A stretch of DNA of 20,548 bases. It comes from a virus (taxonomy: Duplodnaviria; Heunggongvirae; Uroviricota; Caudoviricetes). The stretch lies in the IMG/VR virus record IMGVR_UViG_2872698443_000003; one strand, 5' to 3'. Below, one piece after another: positions 1,745 through 20,548 of the stretch (position 1 is the stretch's first letter; the number at the start of each line of letters is the position of its first letter). The notes beneath the pieces are model-generated. The model ran no database searches, was not told the DNA's origin, and saw only the letters and a list, made by a program, of their open reading frames with translations. Both the position numbers and the translations under genes were made by a program.

Positions 1745-1839
1745 TGAATAAAACCACGAGTTCCTGGTGTGCCTTATTCGGCCTGCTAGTTCGAATTTAA
1801 TTTACGGTTTTTATGTGGTTTTAGGGATAAACACAAGGA

Positions 1840-1854
1840 TGGTGTCCCCTGCAG
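1840..1854 (-). other. attR core: TGGTGTCCCCTGCAG, reverse complement of the 3' end of tRNA-Arg (argW)
   Basis: Match to recalled argW 3' terminus CTGCAGGGGACACCA; orientation agrees with minus-strand int at the far end; lies immediately outside torI. Confidence 0.6.
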
Positions 1855-1927: not shown

Positions 1928-2128
1928 TTACCCATTAGCGCGGCTTAAGAGCTTATTTTTGAATTCACAATGGTCACGATATAACCATCTTGCTCGCCCG
2001 TGGATAACTTTGGCTTTTGGCAGGTCGCCGGACTTAATCCGGTCATAGATGAAGGTTTTACCAAAGCCAGTATCAGCCATGATGAATTTCAAATCAACCA
2101 GTGAATCAGGCTGTAGTTCGTGTTGCAT
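1928..2128 (-). CDS. torI: TorI, KplE1 excisionase/recombination directionality factor and Tor response-regulator inhibitor, 66 aa
   Basis: Track ORF 1928..2128; protein MQHELQPDSLVDLKFIMADTGFGKTFIYDRIKSGDLPKAKVIHGRARWLYRDHCEFKNKLLSRANG matches E. coli K-12 TorI as recalled. Confidence 0.9.
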   Translation of the reverse strand: MQHELQPDSLVDLKFIMADTGFGKTFIYDRIKSGDLPKAKVIHGRARWLYRDHCEFKNKLLSRANG

Positions 2129-2353: not shown

Positions 2354-2433
2354 TTATCATCTCCATAAAACAAAACTCGCCGTAGCGAGTTCAGATAAAA
2401 GAAATCCATCAATTGGTTAGGGTTTTTGTAATT

Positions 2434-2625: not shown

Positions 2626-2736
2626 TTTTCGAACCCTCTTTAATATGCATTTTTTGCTATTTCAGTAGTTTACTATTGATGAGGCGTTATTATACACACT
2701 TCATTAATGCAAGCATCTTTATGCTATGCTACTAAT

Positions 2737-4504: not shown

Positions 4505-4514
4505 TGTTAATTCC

Positions 4515-4811: not shown

Positions 4812-4824
4812 GATTTTCTCCTGA

Positions 4825-5340
4825 TTAAATTGCGTGAATAGCGTGACGAGGGAAGGGGAGGGTTACTGGCGCAAAAGGTATATCGTCGTCAAACTCCATA
4901 GGTGGTTCGCTGTGATTTACCTGCTTCTGAGGCTGCTGTTTTTGTTGCTGACCGTTATTTCGCTGAGGTGAAGACTGTTCATTGCTTCCTTGCTTGCCAC
5001 CAAGCATTTGCATGGTTCCACCAACGCCCACGATAACTTCGGTAGTGAACCGATCCTGTCCGCTTTGATCCTGCCATTTTCTTGTCCGCAATTTTCCTTC
5101 AAGATAAACCTCAGAGCCTTTTCGCAGATATTCGCTGGCAATTTCTGCCAGTTTCCCGCTCATTACCACACGGTGCCACTCCGTCTGCTCCTTTTGCTCT
5201 CCAGTTTGCTTATCACGCCATTGTTCTGACGTAGCAACTATAAGGTTTGCAAATGCCGTTCCTGATGGTGAATATCTGATTTCTGGATCATGCCCAAGGC
5301 GACCAATAATGATCACCTTATTTACGCCTCTACTTCCCAT
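4825..5340 (-). CDS. ssb: Phage single-stranded DNA-binding protein with a 15-residue extension after the canonical DDDIPF tail, 171 aa
   Basis: N-terminal OB-fold region closely matches E. coli SSB as recalled ([51 protein letters not shown]...[10 protein letters not shown]); C-terminus reads ...[24 protein letters not shown]. Confidence 0.88.
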
Positions 5341-6048: not shown

Positions 6049-6056
6049 AATTCACC

Positions 6057-6227
6057 TCAGAATGGACATGGCCCAAGGAAATAACGCTGGTTTAATACTT
6101 CGACTCGGGACAAATTAAGGCATACCCGCATTCCTTCGCGGTCACCATTATGGCGATACCAGAGAGCTTTTTGCGTGTACATGCGTCTCTGTAACTTGCT
6201 CTCCTTCACTGTGGTTGCAAGTGACAT
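6057..6227 (-). CDS. Small hypothetical ORF, 56 aa, strong SD (GGAGAT) but overlaps the 6148..6306 ORF out of frame
   Basis: Manual translation (MSLATTVKESKLQRRMYTQKALWYRHNGDREGMRVCLNLSRVEVLNQRYFLGPCPF). Confidence 0.3.
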   Translation of the reverse strand: MSLATTVKESKLQRRMYTQKALWYRHNGDREGMRVCLNLSRVEVLNQRYFLGPCPF

Positions 6228-6306
6228 GAATATCTCCTTCGTTACCGATTAATTCTTTCATCTGACGAATGAATTCTTCGTCTGACCAGTTATCTGTAAA
6301 ACTCAT
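6148..6306 (-). CDS. Small acidic hypothetical protein, 52 aa
   Basis: Manual translation; start ATG overlaps the upstream stop in ATGA at 6303-6306. Confidence 0.35.
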   Translation of the reverse strand: MSFTDNWSDEEFIRQMKELIGNEGDIHVTCNHSEGEQVTETHVHAKSSLVSP

Positions 6307-6455
6307 TTCCTGCGATACCACGGAATGTTGATCGCTGATTTCATCGCTTTATTTGCTTCAAGCCACATTTTGGAATCACCAATAAATCTGGCTATTACTG
6401 CTTTGTTCTGTGCAGCACGAAGCATCTGGTGATTAATGACTATTTCATTGCGCAT
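6303..6455 (-). CDS. Small hypothetical protein, 50 aa (MRNEIVINHQMLRAAQNKAVIARFIGDSKMWLEANKAMKSAINIPWYRRK)
   Basis: Manual translation; GGAGG 5 nt upstream of ATG 6455. Confidence 0.4.
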   Translation of the reverse strand: MRNEIVINHQMLRAAQNKAVIARFIGDSKMWLEANKAMKSAINIPWYRRK

Positions 6456-6574
6456 AACGCCTCCAGTTGTTTCTTTGCTGCTCTGATTAATTGTTTAACT
6501 CGGCGTGATAATTCAGATTCGTGCGGGTAGAAAGCGGACATGACGCCGCTACCCGCGAGCTGAAAGTGCATCAT
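6440..6574 (-). CDS. Small hypothetical protein, 44 aa from the internal ATG; the longer track ORF 6440..6679 would read through a terminator
   Basis: AAGGAG 7 nt upstream of ATG 6574; terminator 6641-6664 sits inside the longer track ORF. Confidence 0.4.
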   Translation of the reverse strand: MMHFQLAGSGVMSAFYPHESELSRRVKQLIRAAKKQLEALCAMK

Positions 6575-6640
6575 GGGTAACTCCTTATATTTGATTGCAT
6601 AACGAAAACGCCTCAAGTGAAGCGTTATTGGTATGCATAT

Positions 6641-6664
6641 AAAAAAGCCCCCACACTGGAGGGC
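6641..6664 (-). terminator. Rho-independent terminator on the minus strand
   Basis: Minus-strand RNA GCCCUCCAGUGUGGGGGC followed by UUUUUU. Confidence 0.55.
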
Positions 6665-6759
6665 AAAGAAGATTTCCAATAATCAGAACAAGTCGGCTCC
6701 TGTTTAGTTACGAGCGACATTGCTCCGTGTATTCACTCGTTGGAATGAATACACAGTGC

Positions 6760-6963
6760 TTATTCGCGAGCTTTGAGCATTGCGTCTGCAAACTTATATG
6801 CAGCGCTTGCTGCATAATTAACAGCTCCATCAGAATCATTATCGATAATCGATGGATTGCTAATCATTGCTTGCATAGCCTTTGCCGCGAAGTAATCACG
6901 TAATGTCGCATCACTTGCCATTTCTGGGCGTTTGATATCTGCTTCGTAAAACTCGCACATCAC
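6760..6963 (-). CDS. Hypothetical early protein, 67 aa
   Basis: Track ORF; start overlaps the upstream stop (ATGA at 6960-6963). Confidence 0.5.
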   Translation of the reverse strand: MMCEFYEADIKRPEMASDATLRDYFAAKAMQAMISNPSIIDNDSDGAVNYAASAAYKFADAMLKARE

Positions 6964-7256
6964 TCACCTCCCAGAGCCTTGATGATTGCTGCAAAACCTT
7001 TATTAACAGCTCCATACCATTCTGGATATGTTGTCGTTGTTCTATTTTTGGATTGCTTAAGTAATAACTGAAGTGCTTCGAGAAGGTCAGGTGCTGCCGC
7101 TATTAGATTGGCATCTTCAATGCATTGAACTTCCTCACAGATTGCAATATACGAACGCCAGCCTGCGCCATTTTCAAGAGAGTCTGCCTGGATGATTTTA
7201 ATCTCATCGCCATCCATCATTATTTCCCACTTACCTTCAGTACCTTTAAATTCCAT
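6960..7256 (-). CDS. Hypothetical early protein, 98 aa
   Basis: Track ORF in the leftward operon. Confidence 0.5.
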   Translation of the reverse strand: MEFKGTEGKWEIMMDGDEIKIIQADSLENGAGWRSYIAICEEVQCIEDANLIAAAPDLLEALQLLLKQSKNRTTTTYPEWYGAVNKGFAAIIKALGGE

Positions 7257-7276
7257 GTTAGCCTCTGTTGTTTATG

Positions 7277-7307
7277 CCAAAAATAAAGGCCACCATCAGG
7301 CAGCCTT
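7277..7307 (-). terminator. Rho-independent terminator, related in sequence to the one at 2172-2194
   Basis: Minus-strand stem of about 9 bp (two G-U pairs), loop UGAU, then UUUAUUUUUGG; stop of the 7296..7496 ORF lies in the loop. Confidence 0.5.
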
Positions 7308-7496
7308 GTTGTTCAGTTTACCAAGTTCTCTGGCAATCATTGCCGTCGTTCGTATTGCCCATTTATCGACATATTTCCCATCTTCCATTACAGGAAACAT
7401 TTCTTCAGGCTTAACCATGCATTCCGATTGCAACTTGCATCCATTGCATCGTTTGAATTGTCCACACCATTGATTCTTATCAATAGTCGTAGTCAT
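7296..7496 (-). CDS. Cys-rich small protein, 66 aa, possible zinc-binding
   Basis: Track ORF; C-x4-C-x2-C-x5-C spacing in the N-terminal half. Confidence 0.5.
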   Translation of the reverse strand: MTTTIDKNQWCGQFKRCNGCKLQSECMVKPEEMFPVMEDGKYVDKWAIRTTAMIARELGKLNNKAA

Positions 7497-7574
7497 ACGG
7501 ATAGTCCTGGTATTGTTCCATCACATCCTGCGGATGCTCTTCGAACTCTTCAAATTCTTTTTCCATATCTCACC

Positions 7575-7901
7575 TCAAATAAGTGGTTTGCTGCCTAATT
7601 TCATTTTCTGGCGACCAACACAAGTCACACCCATTTCACTGCGTGGCTTGCTGTACCATGTGCGCTGATTCTTGCGCTCAATACGTTGCAGGTTGCTTTC
7701 AATCTGTTCGTGGTATTCAGCCAGCACCGTAAGGTCTATCGGATTCAGTGCGCTTTCTACTCGTGATTTCGGTTTGCGATTCAGCGAGAGAATAGGGCGG
7801 TTAACTGGTTTTGCGCTTACCCCAACCAACAGGGGATTTGCTGCTTTCCATTGAGCCTGTTTCTCTGCGCGACGTTCGCGGCGGCGTGTTTGTGCATCCA
7901 T
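7575..7901 (-). CDS. N: Antitermination protein N (lambda-like), 108 aa from the internal ATG
   Basis: MDAQTRRRERRAEKQAQWKAANPLLVGVSAKPVNRPILSLNRKPKSRVESALNPIDLTVLAEYH... matches lambda N as recalled; the track ORF's 30 extra N-terminal codons are not part of N. Confidence 0.9.
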   Translation of the reverse strand: MDAQTRRRERRAEKQAQWKAANPLLVGVSAKPVNRPILSLNRKPKSRVESALNPIDLTVLAEYHEQIESNLQRIERKNQRTWYSKPRSEMGVTCVGRQKMKLGSKPLI

Positions 7902-8011
7902 CTGGATTCTCCTGTCAGTTAGCTTTGAGTAACGCGCCGTGATGCTTATCTCCACGGTTGCTGTCTTGCAGCTGCATTTCGCGCTACTCAAAGCCTTCTG
8001 CTTTGAATGCT

Positions 8012-8042
8012 GCCCTTCTTCAGGGCTTAATTTTTAAGAGCC
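8012..8042 (-). promoter_or_regulatory. nutL site: boxA (GCTCTTAAAAATTAA) and boxB hairpin (GCCCTGAAGAAGGGC)
   Basis: Minus-strand sequence GAGGCTCTTAAAAATTAAGCCCTGAAGAAGGGCAGC, near-identical to lambda nutL as recalled. Confidence 0.85.
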
Positions 8043-8082
8043 TCACCTTCAATGGTGGTTAGTGCGTCCTGCTGATGGCTAA

Positions 8083-8111
8083 ATAGTACGATTTGTACTT
8101 TATCGAGTCAA
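8083..8111 (-). promoter_or_regulatory. Candidate pL promoter (-35 TTGACT, 17-nt spacer, -10 TACTAT) with operator palindrome AGTAC-N5-GTACT at 8085-8099
   Basis: Read on the minus strand upstream of nutL; palindrome overlaps the spacer and -10. Confidence 0.5.
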
Positions 8112-8174
8112 TACAAAATGTTCTAAATATAATTGGTTTTTTATAACGCTTTGTATTTAATGGGTTTATATTTT

Positions 8175-8206
8175 GGAAAAAGAAAACCCGACACTAAGGT
8201 CGGGTT
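8175..8206 (-). terminator. Rho-independent terminator downstream of cI
   Basis: 8-bp stem AACCCGAC/GTCGGGTT with 6-nt loop, followed on the minus strand by TTCTTTTTCC. Confidence 0.6.
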
Positions 8207-8236
8207 ATTGTTGTGTGCTTTAGAGTGGTGAGGCTG

Positions 8237-8896
8237 TTAACTAAATGTCTCTTCAGGCCACTGGCTGGCGATAACTTTCCCTACAACGGAACAGCTATCA
8301 TTGCATGGGATCATTGGATATTGCGGGTTTAGTGGCTGTAGGAACACCTGACCGCTATCCCTGATCAGTTTCTTGAAGGTAAACTCGTCACCACCAAGTC
8401 TGGCTATGCAGAAATCACCTGGCTCAACAGCCTGCTCAGGGTCAACGAGAATTAACATCCCGTCAGGAAAGCTTGGCTTGGATCCTGTTGGCGCGGTCAT
8501 GGAATTACCTTCAACTTCAAGCCAGAACGCACAATCACTGGCTTTTTTGGTTGTGCTGACCCATCTCTCCGCATCACCTTTGGTAAAGGTTCTAAGCTCA
8601 GGCGAGAACATCCCGGCCTGAACATGAGAAAAAACAGGGTACTCATATTGTTTTTTAACGGGGGCAGATGAGTATTCGCCAACAGGTGAAAATGTACCGT
8701 CGTGGTTGAATGAGACGTTATCAATACCAAGGTATTTAAACACCACACCAATCTCGTCAAGAGATGGATGACGAGATCCGCGCAACCAGTGACCAATTCC
8801 ACCCTGCGTCATACCAAGCTCTTCAGCTAACTTCTCTTGAGTTATGCCGAGCTCTTTCATTCTGGATCTAGCCAGTTCATACCATTTCATTTTCAT
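8237..8896 (-). CDS. cI: CI-type prophage repressor: lambda-identical C-terminal dimerisation/autocleavage domain, divergent N-terminal HTH domain
   Basis: From ...[39 protein letters not shown] onward the protein matches lambda CI as recalled; N-terminus ([37 protein letters not shown]) does not. Start is ambiguous (ATG 8896, 8890 or 8932; possibly leaderless). Confidence 0.85.
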
Positions 8897-8952
8897 ACCC
8901 TTATTATTACGCTCTGTACTAAAACCATCCATGCACAAGATGTATTTTTTGT

Positions 8953-8981
8953 TTGCATTCTAAAAGTACATATCGTATTAT
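8953..8981 (+). promoter_or_regulatory. Candidate pR promoter (-35 TTGCAT, 17-nt spacer, -10 TATTAT) with operator half-palindrome AGTAC-N5-GTATT at 8965-8979
   Basis: In the 70-110 bp cI-cro divergent region; motif related to the pL-side palindrome. Confidence 0.45.
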
Positions 8982-9007
8982 TGTTTCATGGTTACTATGG
9001 AGGGCAT

Positions 9008-9223
9008 ATGAGCAACCTACGAAAATATCGAGAGTCACTGAATATCTCTCAAACAACACTTGCTAAGGCAGTTGGATGCACACAGGGAGCTATCGGACAT
9101 TGGGAATCTGGTCGTCGCTTCCCAGACCTTAAAACATGCCGTGCTCTTGTTGAGTGCCTAAACAAGTTAGGCGCAAAAGTCAGTCTTGATGACGTGTTCC
9201 CGCCGGAACACAAAGCCGCTTAA
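9008..9223 (+). CDS. cro: Cro-like HTH (XRE-type) repressor, 71 aa
   Basis: ATG 9008 with GGAGGG upstream; HTH ISQTTLAKAVGCTQGAIGHWESG; position between the operators and nutR. Track ORF 8837.. has a spurious N-terminal extension. Confidence 0.75.
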   Translation: MSNLRKYRESLNISQTTLAKAVGCTQGAIGHWESGRRFPDLKTCRALVECLNKLGAKVSLDDVFPPEHKAA

Positions 9224-9231
9224 GACATTCC

Positions 9232-9263
9232 CGCTCTTACACATCCCAGCCCTGAAAAAGGGC
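9232..9263 (+). promoter_or_regulatory. nutR site: boxA CGCTCTTA and boxB GCCCTGAAAAAGGGC
   Basis: CGCTCTTACACATCCCAGCCCTGAAAAAGGGC, near-identical to lambda nutR as recalled. Confidence 0.85.
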
Positions 9264-9342
9264 ATCAAATTAAACCACACCTATGGTGTATGCATTTATT
9301 TGCATACCTTCAATCAATTGTTATCTAAGGAAATACTTACAT

Positions 9343-9636
9343 ATGGTTCGTGCAAACAAACGCAACGAGGCTCTAAGAATCGAGAGTGCGTTGCTTAACA
9401 AAATCGCAATGCTTGGAACTGAGAAGACAGCGGAAGCTGTGGGAGTTGATAAGTCGCAGATCAGCAGGTGGAAGAGGGATTGGATTCCAAAGTTCTCAAT
9501 GCTGCTTGCTGTTCTTGAATGGGGCGTCGTCGACGACGATATGGCTCGATTGGCACGACAAGTTGCTTCGATTCTCACCAATAAAAAACGCCCGGAGGCA
9601 ACCGAGCGTTCTGAACAAATCCAGATGGAATTCTGA
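9343..9636 (+). CDS. cII: Transcriptional activator CII (lambda-like), 97 aa
   Basis: [75 protein letters not shown]... matches lambda CII as recalled; ATG at 9343. Confidence 0.9.
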
Positions 9637-9668
9637 GGTCATTACTGGATCAATCCACAGGAGTCATT

Positions 9669-9815
9669 ATGACAAAACAACTCAGTCCTTACCAGGACAA
9701 AATTCACAAACACATACTACGTGATCGCTTCCTGTCCAGCTTCAAGCAGCCTGGTCGATTCCGGGCTGAGTTGGAAAAAGTGAAGCTGATGCAGAAGGAG
9801 AAAGGTCATGAGTAA
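9669..9815 (+). CDS. Small hypothetical protein, 48 aa, between cII and the replication initiator
   Basis: Manual translation ([48 protein letters not shown]); AGGAG 6 nt upstream; overlaps the next start by 8 nt. Confidence 0.4.
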
Positions 9816-10668
9816 TCTTGCAACCGTAACACATTTAAGGCCTTCACAACGGCCTGTGGAGCGTCGTGTGGCAGAAGTTGAAGATGGTTATACCCGTCTT
9901 GCAAATGCCCTGTATGAAGAGCTTATCGGCGCAGATTTAACGAAAAATCAGAGCAAGGTTGCCCACGCCATATGCCGTAAAACATACGGCTACGGTAAAA
10001 AGATGGATCGCATTTCTGATAGTCAGTTAGCTCAAATTACCAGGCTGCCAAGACAGAAGGTAAACAAGGCCAAGAATGAGCTTATCGCGATGAAGGTTAT
10101 CCTTCGCGAAGGCCAGCAAATCGGGCCTAACAAGAACATCGAAGAATGGCAAATCGAAGGGTGTCACTACTCTGGTGATAATGTCACTGCATTGGTGACA
10201 AAAAGTGTCACCAAAACGGTGACAGCGCTGTCACCAAAACAGGGACACACAAAAGAAACTATTACAAAAGAAAAAAGAAATAATAAAAACACTATGTCCG
10301 AAAGTGTTCGGACGGAGTGTGAAAAATCATCTGACCGTCACGAAGAAACCGACAAGGCATTCGAGGAAATATTCTGGTGTGCAGGCATGCGGAAAGCCGG
10401 GAAGAAAAACGCGGCTTCGGCATTCAGAACACAGTTCAGGGAATGGCGTAAAACTACCAGGGGTACGGCAAGCGAGTTTGCCACGATGCTGGCAGAAGAC
10501 ATCGCATGCAGGAATGGTAAGCAGTTCGGATTCGACAGGTTGTTACCATCGAGCTACCTGAACGGTCAACGCTGGAACGACGAGAAGCCAGAAACTATTC
10601 AACCACAATCCAAACCATCATCCGCAATCACCGTATCGAAAACTGGCTACGTGTTTTTCGACAGGTGA
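9808..10668 (+). CDS. Replication initiator / replisome organiser (O-like), 286 aa, with origin iterons inside the gene
   Basis: Track ORF at the O position after cII; internal GTGACA/TGTCACC iterons plus AT-rich tract. Confidence 0.6.
10160..10296 (+). repeat. Candidate replication origin: iterons (GGTGACA-N5-TGTCACC, GGTGACA-N4-TGTCACC plus half-sites) followed by an AT-rich tract at 10250-10296
   Basis: Seen directly: ...GGTGACAAAAAGTGTCACCAAAACGGTGACAGCGCTGTCACCAAAACAGGGACACACAAAAGAAACTATTACAAAAGAAAAAAGAAATAATAAAAAC. Confidence 0.6.
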
Positions 10669-10671
10669 ACC

Positions 10672-10779
10672 ATGAAATCAAAAATCAAATCGCTACTGGT
10701 CGCTGGTTATAACCACGGCTGGTTAAGTATTTCGTTTGTCGATTTCTGGTTTAAAAATCTCAATCTGAGGGAATCATGA
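10672..10779 (+). CDS. Micro-ORF, 35 aa, hydrophobic (MKSKIKSLLVAGYNHGWLSISFVDFWFKNLNLRES)
   Basis: AGGTGA upstream; stop overlaps the primase-helicase start (ATGA at 10776-10779). Confidence 0.3.
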   Translation: MKSKIKSLLVAGYNHGWLSISFVDFWFKNLNLRES

Positions 10780-12656
10780 CGCCAAGTGAACTTAGCGACC
10801 TGCTTTGGGCGCAGGTTGACAGGGTGGCTCCGCACCTGTTGCCAAACGGCAAGAAAGAGGGGCATGAGTGGGTTGCCGGTAACGTCAACGGTGACAAGGG
10901 AAACAGCCTTAAGGTCAACCTTAGCGGCAAGAAAAAATGGGCTGATTTCGCTGAGGGAGACGGCGGTGACATGCTTGATTTGTGGATGGCATGTCGTGGA
11001 ATTAACCTGCATCAGGCTATGCAGGAAGCGAAAGCCTTTCTCGGAATCAAGGATGACGATCACCATTTCGATGCCAAACGTGAGAAGAAATTCTCCAGAC
11101 CTGACCGCAAGAAAATCGCCCGCTACGTTACCAGAACAGAATCCCATCTTGAGTACCTGCAATCGCGTGGCATATCGCCAGAAGTCGTAAAGCGCTACGA
11201 GGTTGTCAGCGGCAAGGTGTGGAAGGGAGAACGAGAACTTGATGCACTGGTGCTTCCGTACAAACGCGATGGTGAGTTGTTGCAGGTCAAGCGAATCAGC
11301 ACTGAGCGCCCGGACGGGAAGAAAGTCATTATGGCAGAAGGTGATTGCGAACCTTGTCTGTTCGGATGGCAGGCTCTGGACGCTGGCGTGAGGGCGGTTG
11401 TGCTTTGCGAAGGCGAAATTGATTGTATGAGCTATGCGCAATACGGCATCTCGGCGTTATCCGTGCCGTTTGGTGGAGGGAAAGGCGCTAAGCAACAGTG
11501 GATTGAGTTTGAGTACCACAACCTCGACAGGTTTGAGGAAATATTCATCTCGATGGACGTTGATGATGTTGGTCGTGAAGCCGCAAGGGAAATCGCAAGC
11601 CGACTCGGTGAACATCGTTGCCGTCTTGTTACTCTGCCGTACAAAGACATCAACGAATGCCTGATGAACGGTGTTACCGAGGATGAAATCTGGCAGTACA
11701 TCGGCACGGCATCCTACTTCGATCCTGAAGAACTCTACAGTGCGCGAGAGTTTTACCAGGACACTATCAACGCTTTCTACGGCAAGCAGCAGTATCTGTT
11801 TAATCCACCGTGGGAATCTCTGGCAGATAAATTCCAGTTCCGTGAGGCAGAGTTGACGCTGGTCAATGGTGTGAACGGTCACGGAAAAACGGAGGTTGTC
11901 GGGCATATGGCACTTGAGGCAATGCGTCAGGGTGTGAAGACGTGCATCGCGTCACTTGAGCTGAAGCCTGGTATTCTCCTTAAGCGCCTTACCCGTCAGG
12001 CGACGTGCTGCAAGATGCCGCCAGTGCTGGAAATTGACTCTGCATTTAAATTTTATGACGAAAGACTTTGGGTGTTTGGTCTGACCGGAACGGCGAAAGC
12101 CGACAGGCTGATCGAAATATTCGACTACGCTCGCCGCCGATACGGGATCCAGTTATTCATCATCGACAGCCTGATGAAATGTGGCATAGGCGACGATGAC
12201 TATAACGGGCAGAAGGCGTTTGTTGACTCGATTTGCGACTTCAAAAACAAAACAAACTCCCACGTCATTCTCGTTACTCACTCGCGAAAAGGAGACAGCG
12301 AAGAAAAACCAACCGGGAAAATGGACGTAAAAGGCTCTGGAGCGATAACAGACCTGACAGACAACCTTTTCATCATCTGGCGTAACAAGGCTCGCGAGAG
12401 AGCGTTACAGAGAGTTCAGAGTGGTGAAAAGATGTCAGAGAAGGACGAACAGCTACTGGCATCTCCGGCATCTGTTTTGATGCTTGAAAAACAACGTAAC
12501 GGCGAAGGTTGGGAAGGTGGTGTCCCGTTGTTCCTTGACGAGCAATCGCACCAGTTCCTGCAACTTGAATCAGGATCGCCATATAGCTACATCGCCAATA
12601 TGCCGAAATCGGAATATGACGAGGCGTGGCGACAGGAAAACGTGACGGAGTATTAA
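10776..12656 (+). CDS. Bifunctional primase-helicase (Toprim domain plus DnaB/RecA-like helicase core), 626 aa
   Basis: Toprim-like VVLCEGEIDCMS and ISMDVDD; Walker A NGVNGHGKT; Walker B-like LFIIDSL; occupies the lambda P position. Confidence 0.7.
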   Translation: MTPSELSDLLWAQVDRVAPHLLPNGKKEGHEWVAGNVNGDKGNSLKVNLSGKKKWADFAEGDGGDMLDLWMACRGINLHQAMQEAKAFLGIKDDDHHFDAKREKKFSRPDRKKIARYVTRTESHLEYLQSRGISPEVVKRYEVVSGKVWKGERELDALVLPYKRDGELLQVKRISTERPDGKKVIMAEGDCEPCLFGWQALDAGVRAVVLCEGEIDCMSYAQYGISALSVPFGGGKGAKQQWIEFEYHNLDRFEEIFISMDVDDVGREAAREIASRLGEHRCRLVTLPYKDINECLMNGVTEDEIWQYIGTASYFDPEELYSAREFYQDTINAFYGKQQYLFNPPWESLADKFQFREAELTLVNGVNGHGKTEVVGHMALEAMRQGVKTCIASLELKPGILLKRLTRQATCCKMPPVLEIDSAFKFYDERLWVFGLTGTAKADRLIEIFDYARRRYGIQLFIIDSLMKCGIGDDDYNGQKAFVDSICDFKNKTNSHVILVTHSRKGDSEEKPTGKMDVKGSGAITDLTDNLFIIWRNKARERALQRVQSGEKMSEKDEQLLASPASVLMLEKQRNGEGWEGGVPLFLDEQSHQFLQLESGSPYSYIANMPKSEYDEAWRQENVTEY

Positions 12657-12685
12657 ATGACCATCTACATCACTGAGCTAATAAC

Positions 12686-12717
12686 AGGCCTGCTGGTAAT
12701 CGCAGGCCTTTTTATTT
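12686..12717 (+). terminator. Rho-independent terminator after the primase-helicase
   Basis: Stem AGGCCTGC/GCAGGCCT with 8-nt loop, followed by TTTTTATTT. Confidence 0.6.
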
Positions 12718-12732
12718 GGGGGAGAGTAAATC

Positions 12733-12939
12733 GTGGCTGAGTTTATGCTCGTCGCATTCAAATGCGTTGGCGTTGGATGGATTCTTCTGACGTTTTTTAT
12801 TGTTCTGCATAGCTACATTCGTCTTGTGAATGACGGTAAAGACCCATGGTATACGTTGTTTGGCGCTGCATTTGTCTGGGTGATTATCGGTGTTATGCCT
12901 GTCGCTGTAGCAAAAATGGCGTGGCGTTTTGTGAGTTGA
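12733..12939 (+). CDS. Small membrane protein, 68 aa, two predicted transmembrane helices
   Basis: Track ORF, GTG start with GGGGGAGAG upstream; hydrophobic stretches LVAFKCVGVGWILLTFFIVL and FGAAFVWVIIGVMPVAVA. Confidence 0.5.
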   Translation: MAEFMLVAFKCVGVGWILLTFFIVLHSYIRLVNDGKDPWYTLFGAAFVWVIIGVMPVAVAKMAWRFVS

Positions 12940-12956
12940 ACTGAGGGTAAGTATCG

Positions 12957-13313
12957 ATGGACGAATCAAGAAAGCAGTTTGAGGAATACGTTGCCAAAAA
13001 ATTGAGATTACCATTCGAGATGATAACCGAGGCAAGAAATGGTGATAGGTACTTCGCATTTTCAAGCATGGATATTCGTCACTCCTTAAATGAGTGGTGG
13101 ACTTTATGGCAGGCATCGCGAGCAGCTATTGAACTGGATATCGACTGGCCAGAATCGAATGACGACTTTTGGAAAGATGGTGAAGAAGGTGCTTATGCGA
13201 TGGGTTATGAGGATGGGCGTGACAAAACGGTAATTGCAGTAATGAAAGCTATCAGAGCCGCTGGAATTAAAGAGAAGAATTTCGATGAAGCAAACAATAT
13301 TCCTCCGAACTAA
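12957..13313 (+). CDS. Hypothetical acidic protein, 118 aa, at the position lambda uses for ren
   Basis: Track ORF; GAGGGT upstream. Confidence 0.5.
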   Translation: MDESRKQFEEYVAKKLRLPFEMITEARNGDRYFAFSSMDIRHSLNEWWTLWQASRAAIELDIDWPESNDDFWKDGEEGAYAMGYEDGRDKTVIAVMKAIRAAGIKEKNFDEANNIPPN

Positions 13314-13695
13314 GCAACAACAGCAAGCCGCAATCAACGCCATCCTCGCAACACCACTCGATAAAGACAAGCCAGTCACCATCCGCATTACTGACTACAA
13401 GCGCAACCTTGACCAGAACGCAAAATTTCACGCGATGCTGGCGGATATCGCACGTCAGGTTCAATGGTGCGATAAGTGGTTAAAACCAGAACAATGGAAG
13501 GTTTTGTTGATTAGCGGTCATGCAGTGGCAACAAAGCAGGAAGCTGATGTTTTACCCGGCCTTGAAGGCGAATACGTCAACATTCGCGAAAGCAGCGCGC
13601 AGATGAGCGTGAAGCGTATGGCAAGTCTTATCGAGTACACAACAGCATGGGCTATTGGTCAGGGTGTCAGATTTACCGACAGGAGGTACGAATGA
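13285..13695 (+). CDS. ninB: NinB (Orf) recombination mediator, 136 aa
   Basis: Track ORF; similar in length and in the central ...LDQN... region to lambda NinB as recalled. Confidence 0.7.
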
Positions 13696-13868
13696 GGCGA
13701 CAGCGACGAAGTTTCACCGACATCATCTGCGAAAACTGCAAATACCTTCCAACGAAACGCTCCAGAAATAAACGCAAGCCAATCCCAAAAGAATCTGACG
13801 TAAAAACCTTCAATTACACAGCTCACCTGTGGGATATCCGGTGGCTAAGATATCGTGCGAGGAAATGA
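13692..13868 (+). CDS. ninE: NinE, 58 aa
   Basis: [58 protein letters not shown] matches lambda NinE as recalled; ATG 13692 with AGGAGG upstream; ATGA overlap with ninB. Confidence 0.85.
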
Positions 13869-14212
13869 CAATGGATTATTCACAGTTAAGTGATTTTGAA
13901 ATTAACAGAATGGTAGGAGACATAATTTTTAAAGGCCTTTGGGCAAGTAAACCGGAAACATCAGGGAATAACACCAACAAATGGTATTACGGAAATGCTG
14001 ATACAACTTTTGAGCCATTAAATCATTTGCCTGACTACTGCAATGATCCGAGCGCTTCATGGCCGATTATTGAGAAATACAGGATTTCTATCTTAGACCA
14101 GTTAACTGAATGGTGTGTGGATGCAAAAGGCGTAAGCCCAATATTTGATACCAGACCTCTCCGCGCCGCCATGATTGTCTTTCTCATGATGCAGGACGCC
14201 AATAATGCTTAG
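13865..14212 (+). CDS. Hypothetical nin-region protein, 115 aa (possibly DUF2591/NinX-like)
   Basis: ATG 13865 overlaps the ninE stop (ATGA); track ORF 13829.. has a short upstream extension. Confidence 0.5.
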
Positions 14213-14381
14213 CCCATCCCAATCCCTTCAATACCAGAAAGAAAGCGTCGAGCGGGCTTTAACGTGCGCTAACTGCGGTCAGAAGCTGCATGTGCTGGAA
14301 GTTCATGTGTGTGAGCACTGCTGCGCAGAACTGATGAGCGATCCGAATAGCTCAATGTACGAGGAAGAAGACGATGAATGA
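14205..14381 (+). CDS. ninF: NinF, 58 aa, below the track cutoff
   Basis: Manual translation [58 protein letters not shown] matches lambda NinF as recalled. Confidence 0.8.
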
Positions 14382-15096
14382 GTTAATAAATGGCAATGCC
14401 ATCAAAATGACAAGCATTGAAATCGCTGAGTTGGTGGGTAAGCGTCATGACAATGTGAAACGTACCATCGAAACGCTGGCTAAAAATGGTGTTATCCGGC
14501 TTCCTCAAATTGAGGTTTCCGAAAGAATCAATAACTTAGGGTTCAATGTTCAGTACGAGCATTACGTCTTCGAGGGCGAACAAGGTAAGCGAGACAGTAT
14601 TGTCGTTGTTGCCCAGTTGTCGCCAGAGTTCACCGCTCGCCTTGTTGACCGTTGGCGAGAGCTTGAAGAAGCTGCGGTTAATATCCCCAAAACGCTACCG
14701 GAAGCGTTGCGCCTTGCTGCTGATCTTGCTGAGCAGAAAATGCAGCTGGAAAACCAGCTCGCAATTGCCGCACCTAAAGTTGAGTTTGCCGATCGCGTTG
14801 GCGAGGCCAGCGGAATTTTGATTGGAAACTTTGCAAAGGTTGTTGGAATTGGTCCAAACAAACTGTTTGCGTGGATGCGCGATCACAAAATCCTTATTGC
14901 TTCAGGTTCCCGGCGCAATGTGCCAATGCAGGAATATATGGATCGCGGCTATTTCGCAGTGAAAGAAACAGCGGTCAACACAAATCACGGAATACAGATA
15001 TCGTTCACCACAAAAATCACCGGGCGTGGTCAACAGTGGCTGACCAGAAAGCTGCTCGATAACGGAATGCTGAAAGTAACCGGGGAGGCTGCTTAA
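14374..15096 (+). CDS. Rha-family phage regulatory protein / antirepressor (Rha-like N-terminus, KilAC/Ant-like C-terminus), 240 aa
   Basis: Track ORF; N-terminal [30 protein letters not shown] is typical of Rha proteins; family assignment from recalled features. Confidence 0.6.
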   Translation: MNELINGNAIKMTSIEIAELVGKRHDNVKRTIETLAKNGVIRLPQIEVSERINNLGFNVQYEHYVFEGEQGKRDSIVVVAQLSPEFTARLVDRWRELEEAAVNIPKTLPEALRLAADLAEQKMQLENQLAIAAPKVEFADRVGEASGILIGNFAKVVGIGPNKLFAWMRDHKILIASGSRRNVPMQEYMDRGYFAVKETAVNTNHGIQISFTTKITGRGQQWLTRKLLDNGMLKVTGEAA

Positions 15097-15386
15097 TGGC
15101 TAACCTACGCAAAGAAGCGCGCAACAGAGAATGCCAGGTACGTATTTACGGCGTATGCAATGGCAACCCTGAAACTACAGTTCTGGCACATTACCGGATG
15201 GCTGGAATTTGCGGAACGGGAATGAAACCTGACGACCTGATCGGCGCATGGGCTTGTAGCGCGTGTCACGATGAAATCGACCGACGTACCCATAATATCG
15301 ACAACAAAGACGCCAGACTTTACCACCTCGAAGGCGTGATCAGGACGCAGGCGATACTGCTGAAGGAGGGGAAGATTAAGTCATGA
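15096..15386 (+). CDS. YbcO-like (DUF1364) protein, putative nuclease, 96 aa
   Basis: Resembles DLP12 YbcO as recalled (CQVRI.GVCNGNPET.VLAH.R..G.CGTG.KP.DL...ACSACHDEIDRRTH). Confidence 0.7.
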   Translation: MANLRKEARNRECQVRIYGVCNGNPETTVLAHYRMAGICGTGMKPDDLIGAWACSACHDEIDRRTHNIDNKDARLYHLEGVIRTQAILLKEGKIKS

Positions 15387-15745
15387 ACGAATATCAGTTT
15401 GTGCTTCCATACCCGCCGTCGGTGAACACCTACTGGCGAAGACGGGGAAGCCAATACTACATCAGCGATAAAGGCCAGAAATACCGAAAAGACGTTCAGA
15501 AAATCATCCGCCAACTCAAGTTAGACATTTTCACCAAATCACGACTCCGCATCAAAGTAATCGCAGACGTTCCAGACTCCCGCCGCCGCGACCTCGATAA
15601 CATCCTGAAAGGTTTACTCGACTCACTTATCCACGCCGGATTTGCGGAAGACGACGAGCAATTCGATGACATTCGCGTAATTCGTGGCGTGAAAGTACCA
15701 GGCGGAAGGCTTGGAATAAAAATCACCGAACTGGAGAACGCATGA
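15383..15745 (+). CDS. rusA: RusA-type Holliday-junction resolvase, 120 aa
   Basis: Length and motifs (LPYPPSVN.YWR, DRRRRDLDN) match RusA as recalled. Confidence 0.8.
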   Translation: MNEYQFVLPYPPSVNTYWRRRGSQYYISDKGQKYRKDVQKIIRQLKLDIFTKSRLRIKVIADVPDSRRRDLDNILKGLLDSLIHAGFAEDDEQFDDIRVIRGVKVPGGRLGIKITELENA

Positions 15746-15930
15746 ACGCCACAATTCAAACGATACCAGAGCTTCTTATCCAGACACGAGGCAATCAGAC
15801 CGAAGTGGCGAGGATGCTTTCCTGCGCAAGAGGAACAGTGCTCAAGTACAACCGAGACAGCAAAGGTGAGCGTCACGTAATAGTTAACGGCGTCCTGATG
15901 GTCAAACAGGGCAAGAGGGGAAGACCATGA
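15742..15930 (+). CDS. ninH: NinH, 62 aa
   Basis: TIPELLIQTRGNQTEVARMLSCARGTVLKYNRDSKGERHVIVNGVLMV resembles lambda NinH as recalled. Confidence 0.75.
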   Translation: MNATIQTIPELLIQTRGNQTEVARMLSCARGTVLKYNRDSKGERHVIVNGVLMVKQGKRGRP

Positions 15931-16136
15931 GACTCGAAAGCGTAGCTAAATTTCACTCGCCAAAAAGCCCGATGATGAGCGACTCACCACGGGCCACGGC
16001 TTCTGACTCTCTTTCCGGTACTGATGTGATGGCTGCTATGGGGATGGCGCAATCACAAGCCGGATTCGGAATGGCTGCATTCTGCGGTAAGCATGAACTC
16101 AGCCAGAACGACAAACAAAAGGCTATCAACTATCTG
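15927..16136 (+). pseudogene. Q: Late antiterminator Q, N-terminal 70 codons only, interrupted by IS1
   Basis: MRLESVAKFHSPKSPMMSDSPRATASDSLSGTDVMAAMGMAQSQAGFGMAAFCGKHELSQNDKQKAINYL matches lambda Q residues 1-70 as recalled; the track ORF then reads into the IS1 end. Confidence 0.9.
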
Positions 16137-16191
16137 GGTAATGCTGCCAACTTACTGATTTAGTGTATGATGGTGTTTTTGAGGTGCTCCA

Positions 16192-16467
16192 GTGGCTTCT
16201 GTTTCTATCAGCTGTCCCTCCTGTTCAGCTACTGACGGGGTGGTGCGTAACGGCAAAAGCACCGCCGGACATCAGCGCTATCTCTGCTCTCACTGCCGTA
16301 AAACATGGCAACTGCAGTTCACTTACACCGCTTCTCAACCCGGTACGCACCAGAAAATCATTGATATGGCCATGAATGGCGTTGGATGCCGGGCAACTGC
16401 CCGCATTATGGGCGTTGGCCTCAACACGATTTTACGTCACTTAAAAAACTCAGGCCGCAGTCGGTAA
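16192..16467 (+). CDS. insA: IS1 InsA, 91 aa
   Basis: [43 protein letters not shown]... recognised. Confidence 0.95.
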
Positions 16468-16889
16468 CCTCGCGCATACAGCCGGGCAGTGACGTCATCG
16501 TCTGCGCGGAAATGGACGAACAGTGGGGCTATGTCGGGGCTAAATCGCGCCAGCGCTGGCTGTTTTACGCGTATGACAGGCTCCGGAAGACGGTTGTTGC
16601 GCACGTATTCGGTGAACGCACGATGGCGACGCTGGGGCGTCTTATGAGCCTGCTGTCACCCTTTGACGTGGTGATATGGATGACGGATGGCTGGCCGCTG
16701 TATGAATCCCGCCTGAAGGGAAAGCTGCACGTAATCAGCAAGCGATATACGCAGCGAATTGAGCGGCATAACCTGAATCTGAGGCAGCACCTGGCACGGC
16801 TGGGACGGAAGTCGCTGTCGTTCTCAAAATCGGTGGAGCTGCATGACAAAGTCATCGGGCATTATCTGAACATAAAACACTATCAATAA
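16386..16889 (+). CDS. insB: IS1 InsB' transposase reading frame, 167 aa (expressed as InsAB' by -1 frameshift)
   Basis: Track ORF matches IS1 InsB as recalled. Confidence 0.95.
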
Positions 16890-16969
16890 GTTGGAGTCAT
16901 TACCGTAATGTTGTTCTGAGAAATACTCATATTGGTTGCCTTGATCTTTTTTCATACGATAACACGCAG

Positions 16970-17728
16970 GTGCTTGTAAAAACCAATACCAATAAAATTA
17001 GCTATGGTAACTCATATGAAAAAATTAATTTCCCGGGAGTTCAGATTCATGATTTTAACGCTATGGTTGAGACTTGGACATCATCTATATCAATAGATAA
17101 TCTTGTTATAAATGGTAGTGGTAGGTTATCTAGAATATCTAACTCATTTACATTTAATACGACATCATCGGATTCTCGCGTATTTGATTTTTGGCAGTAT
17201 ACATCTGATGGAGCTGCTGTTTGTAATATTTACAGAAATGAAATTAGCTCAGATTCTCAGTTTCATCATGATGGTACAACTATAGGAGTGGTGATACCAA
17301 TAGCAAATACCGATAATAAGACACTGCGAGTTGTTATTGATAAAAATGTTTTTAAATGTCAAGGGAAAGAAGTCACATTATCTTTCATGGCTGTAAATGG
17401 GTTGCCATCTGTTCAAACTAAAATTTCCGTGAACTTGATATTGAGCTATTCTTCATCATTAGGCGTTCAAAGAGTATATTCATTCGGTGAGTTTGATATT
17501 GGTAGTTCATGGGGGTTGAAAAAATTCACATTAGCAATACCTTTTGAAGGTCTTGTGTCCGCAAGCGATGCGAATGCTTATTTATCCTTTTCGCTTCCAA
17601 AATCACAAGAAGTAAACATCATCATAGCCAATGTTAATTTATGCAAAGGAAATGTTGCTGTGCAGGGGCCGAGTGATTTAAAGGATTGGGATTTACTATC
17701 TAGATCAATTGCATACTACGGTAGTTAA
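16970..17728 (+). CDS. Low-GC Ser/Thr/Asn-rich hypothetical protein, 252 aa; possibly the C-terminal receptor-binding part of a tail fibre or another surface-interaction protein, probably 5'-truncated
   Basis: Track ORF with GTG start; the frame is open upstream into the IS1 right end (no stop from 16772 by my reading); composition resembles fibre distal domains. Function not recognised. Confidence 0.4.
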   Translation: MLVKTNTNKISYGNSYEKINFPGVQIHDFNAMVETWTSSISIDNLVINGSGRLSRISNSFTFNTTSSDSRVFDFWQYTSDGAAVCNIYRNEISSDSQFHHDGTTIGVVIPIANTDNKTLRVVIDKNVFKCQGKEVTLSFMAVNGLPSVQTKISVNLILSYSSSLGVQRVYSFGEFDIGSSWGLKKFTLAIPFEGLVSASDANAYLSFSLPKSQEVNIIIANVNLCKGNVAVQGPSDLKDWDLLSRSIAYYGS

Positions 17729-17732
17729 TATT

Positions 17733-17759
17733 CCAGCCCCGAGATAATCTCGGGGCTGG
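17733..17759. terminator. Bidirectional terminator / perfect 13-bp inverted repeat (CCAGCCCCGAGAT-A-ATCTCGGGGCTGG) between convergent genes
   Basis: Seen directly in sequence. Confidence 0.6.
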
Positions 17760-17765
17760 CATTAT

Positions 17766-19109
17766 TCATCTAACTTCTACTTTATATCGAACTCCGCGTC
17801 CAAGTAAGATAGAAATGAAAGATGACAAAATCATCAAGGCAATTAAGAACACGATGCTATCAAACATGTATGCCAAGCCTATAGGGGGAGACAGCATTAT
17901 TGCCAATGCCCTGCAATAGAAAGATGCTATGAAAGAAGAGTAGAATATATCGCTTCTTAATCTAATGTTTTTTGCTTTACATACACGACCAAGTATCCAG
18001 CCAAAAAATGCAGTCATGAATAAACCGCCGACAAAGCCAAAGTAAACATAACCAGCAAGATCAAAGTGACTTGTTGGCCCCCTTGCTACATCATCCCCAA
18101 GATACCATACCTTCCAAATCATTCTGCCAACATCATTGGCTGAGTAGTCATATCCAAGCATGTTTTGCATTATCCCATTCCCGGCTATATATCCGAATAG
18201 TTGTAGAAATGCATTTTTTACTTGCAACATGTCAATAACTGCATTTGGGAGTGAGAAGTAGTATGCGTCTCCATTTGCAAATATCCGCATGAATAACATT
18301 TCAACAACAACAGGGGCGTCCATGTAGTTTGATTTTGTATACCCTATTGCTGCTGAATTATATGATATTAGGAATAGCACATAAGCAACAAGAGATACGG
18401 ATATAATTAAAAAAACAACCGCACTTTTTATCGTTAGCCTTGGTTTACGACCTGTAAAAATATAAATTGCAATTATAGCAACTAGCAAATGCTCTAGGAG
18501 AGAAAGTTTTGCGCCTGAAACAAAAGACGCAATTATAGATATAATTATAGCTATAAGTGCTATTGATGCTCTTTTCAACCCTCTGGACTTTACTGCCATG
18601 ACAGAAAGATATCCAGTGAGCATCAGTCTTACAACATCAAGTATCCTTACGATAGCACCAAGACCTCTGTTTGCCTCAAACCTAGACTGTACAAAGGCAT
18701 CAAAAGATATACTTTTTATATATATTACCGTTAGTGATATATAAAATATTAGCAACAAATAGAATATTATTGATGAGTTTTTTTTGCATGTATTAAATAC
18801 CTTGTCAGTTGTTCCAAGTAGTCTAAATTTAGGTGTTCTATATGCCAAGTGCATAAACGAAGCCAATACAATCCAGTTTAGAATAATCATGTAGAACAAG
18901 TGATCAGGAATGTAGTTGTAATTCCATAGCATTAATACTATTGCGTAAGAAGTTCCAAATGTGAAGGTAAAATAGAAGTGTATTGGATCTATCACTCCTA
19001 CTGCCAGCTTCCTTACCGTCATGTAACATAAAACAGTTGTTACTGTAGCGTACAGTAAATACTCTGACCAATTTGAAAATATAAAATAAAAAAAGTCTAT
19101 ATCACTCAT
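17766..19109 (-). CDS. Polytopic inner-membrane protein, 447 aa, about 30% GC, Wzy/O-antigen-polymerase-like or GtrS-like; candidate lysogenic-conversion gene
   Basis: Hydrophobic segments throughout the track ORF; very low GC versus about 50% in the rest of the prophage; sits in the int-proximal slot where P22/KplE1-type phages carry O-antigen modification genes. Confidence 0.55.
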   Translation of the reverse strand: MSDIDFFYFIFSNWSEYLLYATVTTVLCYMTVRKLAVGVIDPIHFYFTFTFGTSYAIVLMLWNYNYIPDHLFYMIILNWIVLASFMHLAYRTPKFRLLGTTDKVFNTCKKNSSIIFYLLLIFYISLTVIYIKSISFDAFVQSRFEANRGLGAIVRILDVVRLMLTGYLSVMAVKSRGLKRASIALIAIIISIIASFVSGAKLSLLEHLLVAIIAIYIFTGRKPRLTIKSAVVFLIISVSLVAYVLFLISYNSAAIGYTKSNYMDAPVVVEMLFMRIFANGDAYYFSLPNAVIDMLQVKNAFLQLFGYIAGNGIMQNMLGYDYSANDVGRMIWKVWYLGDDVARGPTSHFDLAGYVYFGFVGGLFMTAFFGWILGRVCKAKNIRLRSDIFYSSFIASFYCRALAIMLSPPIGLAYMFDSIVFLIALMILSSFISILLGRGVRYKVEVR

Positions 19110-19390
19110 AGCTTTACCATACTTGCTTCATCTCACAACAAGATTCAGATTGAATTTATCACACTTTATCACTTTAATGCAGAGCTTCCCACTAACAACT
19201 TCATGAACAGAACATCTTAACAATCATAACATGCTAAAAAATTGTTTAGCATTTGACTTTGTGTACATCATGATGTAAGCGCCAAATTACATGGTTAATA
19301 ATAGACCAATTGCATGAGAAAGAAATTAGACACACAAAGCTTTGTACTGGGTTGCAAGGCTTTGTGCTATTCGATAGTTGTTAAGGTGGA

Positions 19391-20548
19391 TCACTCAGGC
19401 TTTTCATCAAGCCAGTCCGCCCACCACTGCATCATTTCTCTGCGCTTATCGAGATACTGCGCATGGTTGTAAATACCGCGCACAGATCCGCCGTTGGCAT
19501 GTGCCAGTTGCATTTCAATAGCATCAGCAGGCCATTCGTTCTCGTTCATAATCGTGCTGAATTCATGCCTGAATCCGTGACCGCTTTCCAGACCCTCATA
19601 GCCGATTTGTTTGATCACAAGCAATACCGCGTTCTCGCAGATTGGCTTCTTCTTATCGTTGCGCCCGGCAAAAACAAACTCTGAGACTGGTTTGGTGATT
19701 GAGCTTAGCGTAGTGAGAAGTTCAACCACCTGGTCTGACATCGGGACCACATGAATTTTGCGTCCCTTCATCACACTGGCGTCGATGGTGATAATCCTGT
19801 TTTCAAAATCGACGTTCTTCCATAGCATGGAACGAAGTTCTTTTGTTCTGAGGGCTGTGTAGCGTAAAACTTTGGTTGCAATGAGCGATACGATACTTCC
19901 TGAAAATGTTGCCAGTGCTTTGTTGAATGCCGGGATCTGGTCTGCAGGAAGAAACGGGAAGTTCTTCTTGCGGTATCCCTTCATGGCGTCAGCAAGGTCA
20001 GGTGCCGGGTTATATTTAGCCCTGCCGGTGACAATAGCGTAACGGAAAACCTCGCCGCATCTTCTGCGGGCTTTATTTGCTCGCTCCATTGCACCGCGAT
20101 CTTCAAATCTGCGGATTACTTCCAGCAGTTGCATCGGCTCAATATCCTGAATTTCAAGGCCGCCGATGATAGGTAAAATGTCGTCATCAAACATTTTTGC
20201 AAGTTCATTTGCATAGCCTACTGACCAGACTTGCTTCTTGTGCTCGTACCATTCCTTGTAAATCGCACTAAATGAATTGTTGTTAGACGAAGCCTTTTTC
20301 GCCTTTACCGGATCGATGCCAACCGAGATGTCTTTCCTCGCAGTCCATGCCTTATCCCTTGCTTCCTGCAAAGTCATAAGCGGATATTTTCCGACGGTCA
20401 GGATTTTCTCCTTACCGTCAATCTTGTAGCGAAGCTGCCATACCTTTTTCCCGGATACAGGAACATAAAGGTACAGGCCATTACCATCGAGAAGGCGGTA
20501 TGGTTTTTCTTTCGGCTTTGCTGCTTCAATCTGCTTAACGGTGAGCAT
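19391..20548 (-). CDS. intS: P4-family tyrosine integrase (IntS-type, argW-specific), 385 aa; start codon is the last three bases of the window
   Basis: MLTVKQIEAAKPKEKPYRLLDGNGLYLYVPVSGKKVWQLRYKIDGKEKILTVGKYPLMTLQEARDKAW... matches K-12 IntS as recalled; catalytic R..HxxR..Y region present. Confidence 0.9.
   Translation of the reverse strand: MLTVKQIEAAKPKEKPYRLLDGNGLYLYVPVSGKKVWQLRYKIDGKEKILTVGKYPLMTLQEARDKAWTARKDISVGIDPVKAKKASSNNNSFSAIYKEWYEHKKQVWSVGYANELAKMFDDDILPIIGGLEIQDIEPMQLLEVIRRFEDRGAMERANKARRRCGEVFRYAIVTGRAKYNPAPDLADAMKGYRKKNFPFLPADQIPAFNKALATFSGSIVSLIATKVLRYTALRTKELRSMLWKNVDFENRIITIDASVMKGRKIHVVPMSDQVVELLTTLSSITKPVSEFVFAGRNDKKKPICENAVLLVIKQIGYEGLESGHGFRHEFSTIMNENEWPADAIEMQLAHANGGSVRGIYNHAQYLDKRREMMQWWADWLDEKPE

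Follow-up and report, generated by a model that had tools for sequence, protein, structure and literature searches.

How did an IS1 element come to lie inside a lambda-type Q gene with no target duplication around it and with DNA beyond it that is not Q? The window, by which we mean the whole analysed stretch of 20,548 nt (IMG/VR virus record IMGVR_UViG_2872698443_000003), raises this question near its right end, and unprefixed coordinates below refer to it. A first-pass annotation made from the letters alone had read the locus as a single prophage that lost its late region to an IS1-mediated adjacent deletion and was left locked. Comparison with related genomes leads us to a different reading, in which the window is very probably a chimeric defective prophage at the argW tRNA gene that arose by recombination between two direct IS1 copies.

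A truncated Q gene joined to IS1

The Q segment (Q', codons 1-70 of an antiterminator gene of the lambda Q type) lies at 15927..16136 on the plus strand. It opens an ORF at 15927-16163 that encodes the 70 Q residues, continues for 8 codons of IS1 before it reaches a stop, and matches Pfam Antiterm (PF03589) at 7.8e-15. Every one of the 70 residues is identical to residues 1-70 of lambda Q, with three synonymous differences at the nucleotide level, and over all 210 nt the segment is identical to Q of phages HK542 and mEpX1. The window shares with the lambda-type Q genes (lambda, HK97, HK022, HK542, mEpX1) these first 70 codons, with a protein identical to that of lambda, and differs from them in having neither the residues after 70 nor pR'/qut. 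It holds 70 of the 207 residues of Q, short of a full-length gene of ~207 aa with pR'/qut downstream. No homologue of the lambda pR'/qut region was found in the window; one is present in the complete genome S163-2 (14329-14429 and 14591-14762 of L001), which is described below.

Q' adjoins the left inverted repeat of an IS1A-like element of 768 bp (16137..16904, plus strand). An inverted-repeat search placed the 23-nt terminal arms at 16137-16159 and 16882-16904, with 83% complementarity. The IS1 reading frames in the ORF list are insA (16192-16467) and insB' (16386-16889), and their overlap holds the slippery A-run TTAAAAAAC, the frameshift site. Sequence identical to the window element matches PF03811, PF12759 (InsA) and PF03400 (DDE_Tnp_IS1) in Pfam, and RefSeq labels the identical copy in S163-2 and TUM9754 an intact IS1A-family transposase with a programmed frameshift. 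By length, inverted repeats, reading frames and domains, the element is a member of the IS1 family. An Rfam scan of the whole window returned no matches.

Insertion of IS1 normally produces an 8-9-bp duplication (PMC5009759). The 9 bp on the left of the window element read AACTATCTG and those on the right read GTAATGTTG; they differ, so there is no target duplication. In these respects the earlier description holds. It had marked 15927-16969, a stretch that begins at the start codon of Q and stops just short of the GTG of the downstream ORF, and had stated that the match to lambda Q lasts exactly 70 codons and then runs into IS1, that IS1 is flanked by no duplication, and that the DNA after it is not Q.

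A tailspike fragment, wzy and intS downstream of IS1

The DNA that follows IS1 is the last 824 nt of a P22-type tailspike gene (16905..17728, plus strand). A 252-aa ORF at 16970-17728 has a frame that is open back to the end of IS1, which makes it a fragment of a gene. The fragment corresponds, with 100% identity, to residues 465-737 of WP_251301753.1, a 'phage head-binding domain' protein of FDAARGOS_1248 and B25FEP. In both of these E. coli genomes a 2,214-nt gene encoding 737 aa has this DNA (99.9% identical) at its 3' end, and the 737-aa protein is a P22-type tailspike. The 273-aa post-IS1 ORF had no match in Pfam, PHROGs or NCBIfam, or by tblastn in GenBank phages, and it is recognised as a tailspike C-terminus only through FDAARGOS_1248 and B25FEP, where the gene is intact. 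The intact gene adjoins the same wzy and intS genes in FDAARGOS_1248, and in B25FEP it stands at the end of the late region of a P22-like prophage, both this region and the prophage as a whole looking complete.

Next comes a gene on the minus strand (17766..19109) for a wzy-like O-antigen (oligosaccharide repeat unit) polymerase of 447 aa, which scores 44.3 bits against TIGR04370 (cutoff 40), matches phrog_14022 at 4e-130 and carries the RefSeq name 'O-antigen polymerase'. It had no Pfam match and no tblastn match at 1e-10 among 50,697 GenBank phage records. The gene is a moron of low GC content (33-38%) that sits between the P22-type tailspike gene and intS at argW, and its product may be a serotype-converting polymerase. 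A literature search found no paper on a prophage-borne wzy at argW. Right-flank DNA on the wzy side occurs at an identity of at least 99% in only 8 of 5,426 complete E. coli genomes.

The window closes with intS (19391..20548, minus strand), whose 385-aa product, a tyrosine integrase, has the Pfam domains Arm-DNA-bind_3, Phage_int_M and Phage_integrase and is identical to K-12 IntS at 381 of 385 positions (99%). The window stops at the start codon of intS, and about 160 bp beyond this point TUM9754 and S163-2 have the attL core and argW. The segment 16905-20548 (tailspike C-terminus, wzy, intS) corresponds to the right end of P22-like argW prophages of the HK620/Sf6 type, such as that of B25FEP, of which the window holds only the last 3.6 kb.

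These assignments dispose of the simplest explanation, that IS1 merely inserted into Q, that Q continues beyond it and that the target duplication has since mutated. Such an insertion would explain the presence of IS1 in Q and nothing more. What follows IS1 is tailspike codons 465-737 at 100% identity, then wzy and intS, and this DNA has no similarity to the Q C-terminus that follows IS1 in TUM9754 and S163-2. Since the DNA after IS1 is tailspike and not Q, we reject a simple insertion with a decayed duplication and give it no weight.

Tandem prophages at argW in TUM9754 and S163-2

Two complete E. coli genomes contain all of the window in a longer arrangement. Positions 1-16904 are 100% identical to 1429920-1446823 of TUM9754, and positions 16905-20548 are 100% identical to 1476087-1479730. 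The window equals the TUM9754 sequence minus 29,263 bp, with 0 mismatches and no other difference, and S163-2 gives the same picture with a single mismatch. Both genomes serve as stand-ins for the true parent and are not the parent itself.

In the orientation of the window, the left end in TUM9754 and S163-2 consists of dsdC interrupted by IS3, an att core, and then a lambdoid prophage that appears complete (prophage B). Its genes run from torI through the early-left region, N, cI, cro, cII, the O gene, toprim and nin to a Q gene interrupted by IS1. After the remainder of Q come holin, endolysin, Rz, terminase, portal and capsid genes, a contractile-type tail with sheath and tube genes, baseplate and fibre, and the right end is formed by an acyltransferase gene, dinI and intS-B (WP_097479765), followed by the middle att core. 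Beyond this core is a remnant of about 5.9 kb on the argW-proximal side (remnant A), in the order invertase, 58-aa ORF, a second IS1 copy, tailspike fragment, wzy and intS-A (WP_024228548). To its right are the third att core (attL) and argW.

The 16-nt KplE1 core is present three times in these genomes: at dsdC, between intS-B and the invertase gene, and at argW. The middle core lies at 15826-15841 of L003 in S163-2 and at 913-928 of L022 in TUM9754, and its identity to the argW attL reaches 8 nt further on the argW side. Because a third att core separates two elements that each bear an intS gene, the arrangement shows tandem integration of two argW-specific prophages. The two intS genes encode proteins that are 98% identical; compared directly, the window IntS and that of prophage B agree at 376 of 383 positions (98%).

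The retained intS, wzy and 3' tailspike segment belong to the neighbouring remnant A and not to the Q-bearing prophage. This changes two statements of the first-pass annotation. It had noted that int was kept, which is correct in that an intS gene is present, but the gene comes from remnant A, and the intS of prophage B itself has been deleted. It had also taken the DNA to the right of IS1 for an int-proximal low-GC segment of the Q-bearing prophage; this DNA is instead part of a second, P22-like remnant placed in tandem at argW, with an att core between the two.

Two IS1 copies and the origin of the junction

Copy 1 of IS1 lies in Q (TUM9754 1446056-1446823) and copy 2 in remnant A (1475319-1476086). 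They have the same orientation and are 29,263 bp apart. In TUM9754 and S163-2, copy 1 has AACTATCTG on both sides, a perfect 9-bp duplication, after which Q resumes. With IS1 and one repeat deleted in silico, the gene again encodes 207 aa, of which 206 agree with lambda Q. Copy 2 lies within the tailspike gene, at 2233-3000 of L022 in TUM9754, 17146-17913 of L003 in S163-2 and 12007-12774 of L002 in DETEC-P61. In all three genomes its flanks are CTGTATATG and GTAATGTTG, with no duplication, which marks copy 2 as itself the scar of an earlier IS1-linked deletion that removed most of the P22-like prophage A. In the arrangement described above, copy 2 joins the invertase gene and the 58-aa ORF to tailspike codon 465.

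The right junction of the window, IS1 followed by GTAATGTTG, is present to the base in these three complete genomes, and it therefore pre-exists independently of the insertion in Q. The flanks of the window element come from two pre-existing copies in the same orientation, and the length that is missing equals the distance between them, as is expected of a deletion between direct IS copies. The absence of an 8-9-bp duplication is likewise expected of a single copy remaining after recombination between two. Such deletions are frequent in E. coli, with IS1A as one of the two main contributors (PMC5009759).

At the nucleotide level, the window IS1 is identical to copy 1 of TUM9754 and S163-2 at 768 of 768 positions and to copy 2 at 767 of 768. 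The copies differ at IS1 position 486 only, where copy 1 has G, copy 2 has T and the window has G. This is the sole informative site, and the copy-1 allele of the window fits a crossover within 487-768 but gives no positive mosaic signature. If crossovers were uniform along IS1, about 37% would give the allele pattern of the window.

We propose two steps. IS1 first inserted at Q codon 70, duplicating AACTATCTG, a step that we regard as established. From the exact identity of the junctions we infer that copy 1 then recombined with copy 2, either by a RecA-dependent crossover or by slippage between the 768-bp repeats, with the exchange falling to the right of IS1 position 486 (487-768). This event would have removed one IS1 and 28,495 bp, together 29,263 bp, and the product would carry a single IS1, bordered on its left by the flank of copy 1 and on its right by that of copy 2. 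As Q was broken by the insertion in the first step, prophage B had already lost the ability to switch on its late genes before the deletion.

IS1 also makes adjacent deletions, and this was the mechanism that the first-pass annotation had favoured. In that case intramolecular replicative transposition of the Q copy into a downstream target would have deleted the interval and created a new right junction. Such an event leaves IS1 with no target duplication, and it predicts an element that equals copy 1 throughout, position 486 included, just as is found. The junction between IS1 and GTAATGTTG is not new, however, for it already exists at copy 2 in TUM9754, S163-2 and DETEC-P61, and DETEC-P61 has it without retaining the Q region. 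Among about 29,000 sites in the interval, the transposase would have had to choose precisely the bond that adjoins copy 2 on its right. We reject an adjacent deletion into a new target because the junction was already present at copy 2 in three genomes, and we judge this route to be extremely improbable.

Another possibility is that the source DNA has the TUM9754 arrangement and that the window reflects an assembly or population artefact, the two IS1 copies having been collapsed by the assembler, or a minority subpopulation having been captured, so that 28.5 kb were dropped. Repeat collapse leaves exactly such a signature; the window is base for base the TUM9754 sequence minus the segment between the IS1 copies, and its configuration was found in 0 of 5,426 complete RefSeq E. 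coli genomes. Against this, the window is contiguous over both the IS3-family element and IS1, suggesting long-read or finished sequence, repeats of 768 bp are easily spanned by long reads, and real deletions between direct IS1A copies are frequent (PMC5009759). An artefact is in our opinion unlikely, and recombination between the two direct copies is the reading that we keep below.

The distribution of the junction was examined in the same set of 5,426 genomes. For a 3-kb query that spans IS1, no genome reached a coverage of 80%, and none of the 8 genomes that carry the right-flank DNA (at least 99% identity) has Q' beyond IS1. Within that set, the deletion configuration is known from this window alone. 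An exact-sequence look-up of the Q'-IS1 fusion protein and the tailspike fragment in public assemblies reached almost exclusively short-read drafts that break at IS1, so the genotype is not readable from such contigs.

Genes retained in the window

The window opens within an IS3-family element (transposase at 1-1229, with a programmed frameshift) that splits dsdC, and the two together occupy 1-1744, with the dsdC 3' fragment at 1220-1744. The same dsdC::IS3 allele is found in the window, TUM9754 and S163-2. As dsdC is split by IS3, the D-serine regulator would be inactivated in this lineage.

The left boundary of the chimeric element is the attR core of an argW (KplE1-type) module, ATGGTGTCCCCTGCAG, at 1839..1854. 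This sequence occurs exactly once in the window and is the reverse complement of the published 16-nt KplE1 core CTGCAGGGGACACCAT (PMC2951348). The 180 nt around it are identical to K-12 attR at 176 positions. One end of the element is seen in the window in this form, and the attL end lies beyond the window and is present in TUM9754. Immediately inside the boundary is torI (1928..2128, minus strand), the excisionase or recombination directionality factor of prophage B, which encodes 66 aa (WP_001163428.1 in the identical TUM9754 sequence) and is identical in product to K-12 TorI. With intS at 19391-20548 and torI at 1928-2128, the integrase and the directionality factor occupy opposite ends, as in modules of the KplE1/HK620/Sf6 type.

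Immunity and early regulation are represented by the N antiterminator gene (7575..7901, minus strand; named by RefSeq in the identical S163-2 and TUM9754 sequence and matching Pfam N36), a cI-type repressor gene of the LexA family (8237..8932, minus strand; HTH_3 and Peptidase_S24), cro (9008-9223, plus strand) and cII (9343-9636, plus strand). The replication module (9808..12656, plus strand) consists of a gene for an O-type replication protein (9808-10668, plus strand) and a gene for a toprim/AAA protein of 626 aa (10776-12656, plus strand). The latter takes the position of P and is not a homologue of lambda P. Three iteron-like 19-nt palindromic repeats of the form TGTCACC....GGTGACA lie within the O-type gene at 10182-10247 with a spacing of 23-24 nt, which fits the retention of a lambdoid origin. 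The nin region is kept as well. The inventory agrees with the first-pass annotation, in which torI, immunity, N and replication genes had been listed as retained.

Genes removed and predicted consequences

Set against TUM9754 and S163-2, the window has lost the remainder of Q, pR'/qut, the lysis genes and all morphogenesis genes, as had been proposed. No late genes are annotated in the TUM9754 stretch identical to 1-16904. The deletion also took the O-antigen acyltransferase gene, dinI, intS-B, the middle att core and the invertase gene. The acyltransferase, an O-antigen acetylase-type moron product of 631 aa with Acyl_transf_3 and SGNH domains, is encoded together with dinI next to the lost intS in S163-2 (11843-13738 of L003). 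With acyltransferase and dinI gone and the prophage-borne wzy kept, O-antigen chemistry could change, and the deletion may alter O-antigen modification besides phage competence.

Since Q, pR'/qut and the lysis and structural genes are all missing, gene content predicts no late transcription, lysis or particles from the remnant. This conclusion is well supported and was also reached in the first-pass annotation. The accompanying description of the prophage as 'locked' is doubtful, since the outer ends still bear a K-12-type module of IntS, TorI and att sites. SOS-type immunity, N, the replication genes and TorI all remain in the remnant, which for any excision would need the IntS of its neighbour and the outer att sites. 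It is plausible that the chimera can excise between these sites, given a TorI identical to that of K-12, an IntS of 99% identity and the presence of the attR core. The K-12 KplE1 remnant excises in vivo with its IntS/TorI/att module (PMC2951348).

It is a rather far-fetched extension, in our estimate, that the deletion created a new self-contained element, inducible by the SOS response, excisable through a borrowed IntS and its own TorI, able to replicate and mobilised by a helper in the manner of a satellite, or else that retention of wzy was selected. Under the first of these ideas, induction may act through the S24 domain of cI, and replication may use the O gene, the iterons and the toprim protein. 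The element, which carries wzy but lacks genes for structure, lysis and packaging, may then act like a satellite replicon that a helper phage mobilises. Under the second, the recurrent survival of such an element along with wzy, as in the other IS1-trimmed forms of the locus (ZF34, DETEC-P61), may reflect selection for O-antigen conversion and immunity at no risk of lysis.

Comparison with known deletions and remnants

The components of this locus are all known (IS1, a lambda-type Q, a KplE1/HK620/Sf6-type module), and the process is textbook IS-mediated prophage decay, with no new mechanism or family involved. What is mildly instructive here is a deletion that reaches from one tandem prophage into the other and exchanges the integrase. 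The direct-IS deletions of Lee et al. 2016 (PMC5009759) likewise left a single IS with hybrid flanks and no duplication and lost the intervening segment. Those events occurred in laboratory K-12 mutation-accumulation lines, whereas the window derives from a natural isolate lineage, and the deletion in the window, unlike them, fuses two tandem prophages. The locus is a reconstructed example of stepwise decay, by IS insertion into Q and then IS-by-IS recombination. It illustrates that a deletion can span tandem prophages, so that the remnant ends up with the integrase of its neighbour. For annotation it advises caution, in that an IS with no target duplication and an int gene nearby need not mean a single prophage or a deletion made by a transposase.

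The closest well-described relative is KplE1 (CPS-53) of K-12 (Panis et al. 2010, PMC2951348), with which the window shares the dsdC-argW locus, the 16-nt core, an identical TorI, an IntS of 99% identity and 176 of 180 positions around attR. In both, int and the directionality factor lie at opposite ends, and both are remnants that are dead for particle production. KplE1 is 10.2 kb long and has no repressor, with gtrABS next to intS. The element in the window is at least 18.7 kb long (1839 to 20548) and differs in its complete immunity, N and replication region, in having wzy and a tailspike fragment next to intS, and in consisting of two prophages fused at IS1.

The dsdC-argW locus is the site of at least three other independent prophage-trimming events. 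Four wzy-bearing structures (the window, DETEC-P61, ZF34/ZF31 and FDAARGOS_1248) retain wzy together with the argW-proximal intS. DETEC-P61 (L002) has IS1 beside dsdX, joined to the tail spike gene. In ZF34 (L023) and ZF31 the order is cIII'-IS1-wzy-intS, and their IS1 is divergent (94% identical) and oppositely oriented. FDAARGOS_1248 (L020) has a junction between an ASCH gene and DUF2824, a deletion with no IS association.
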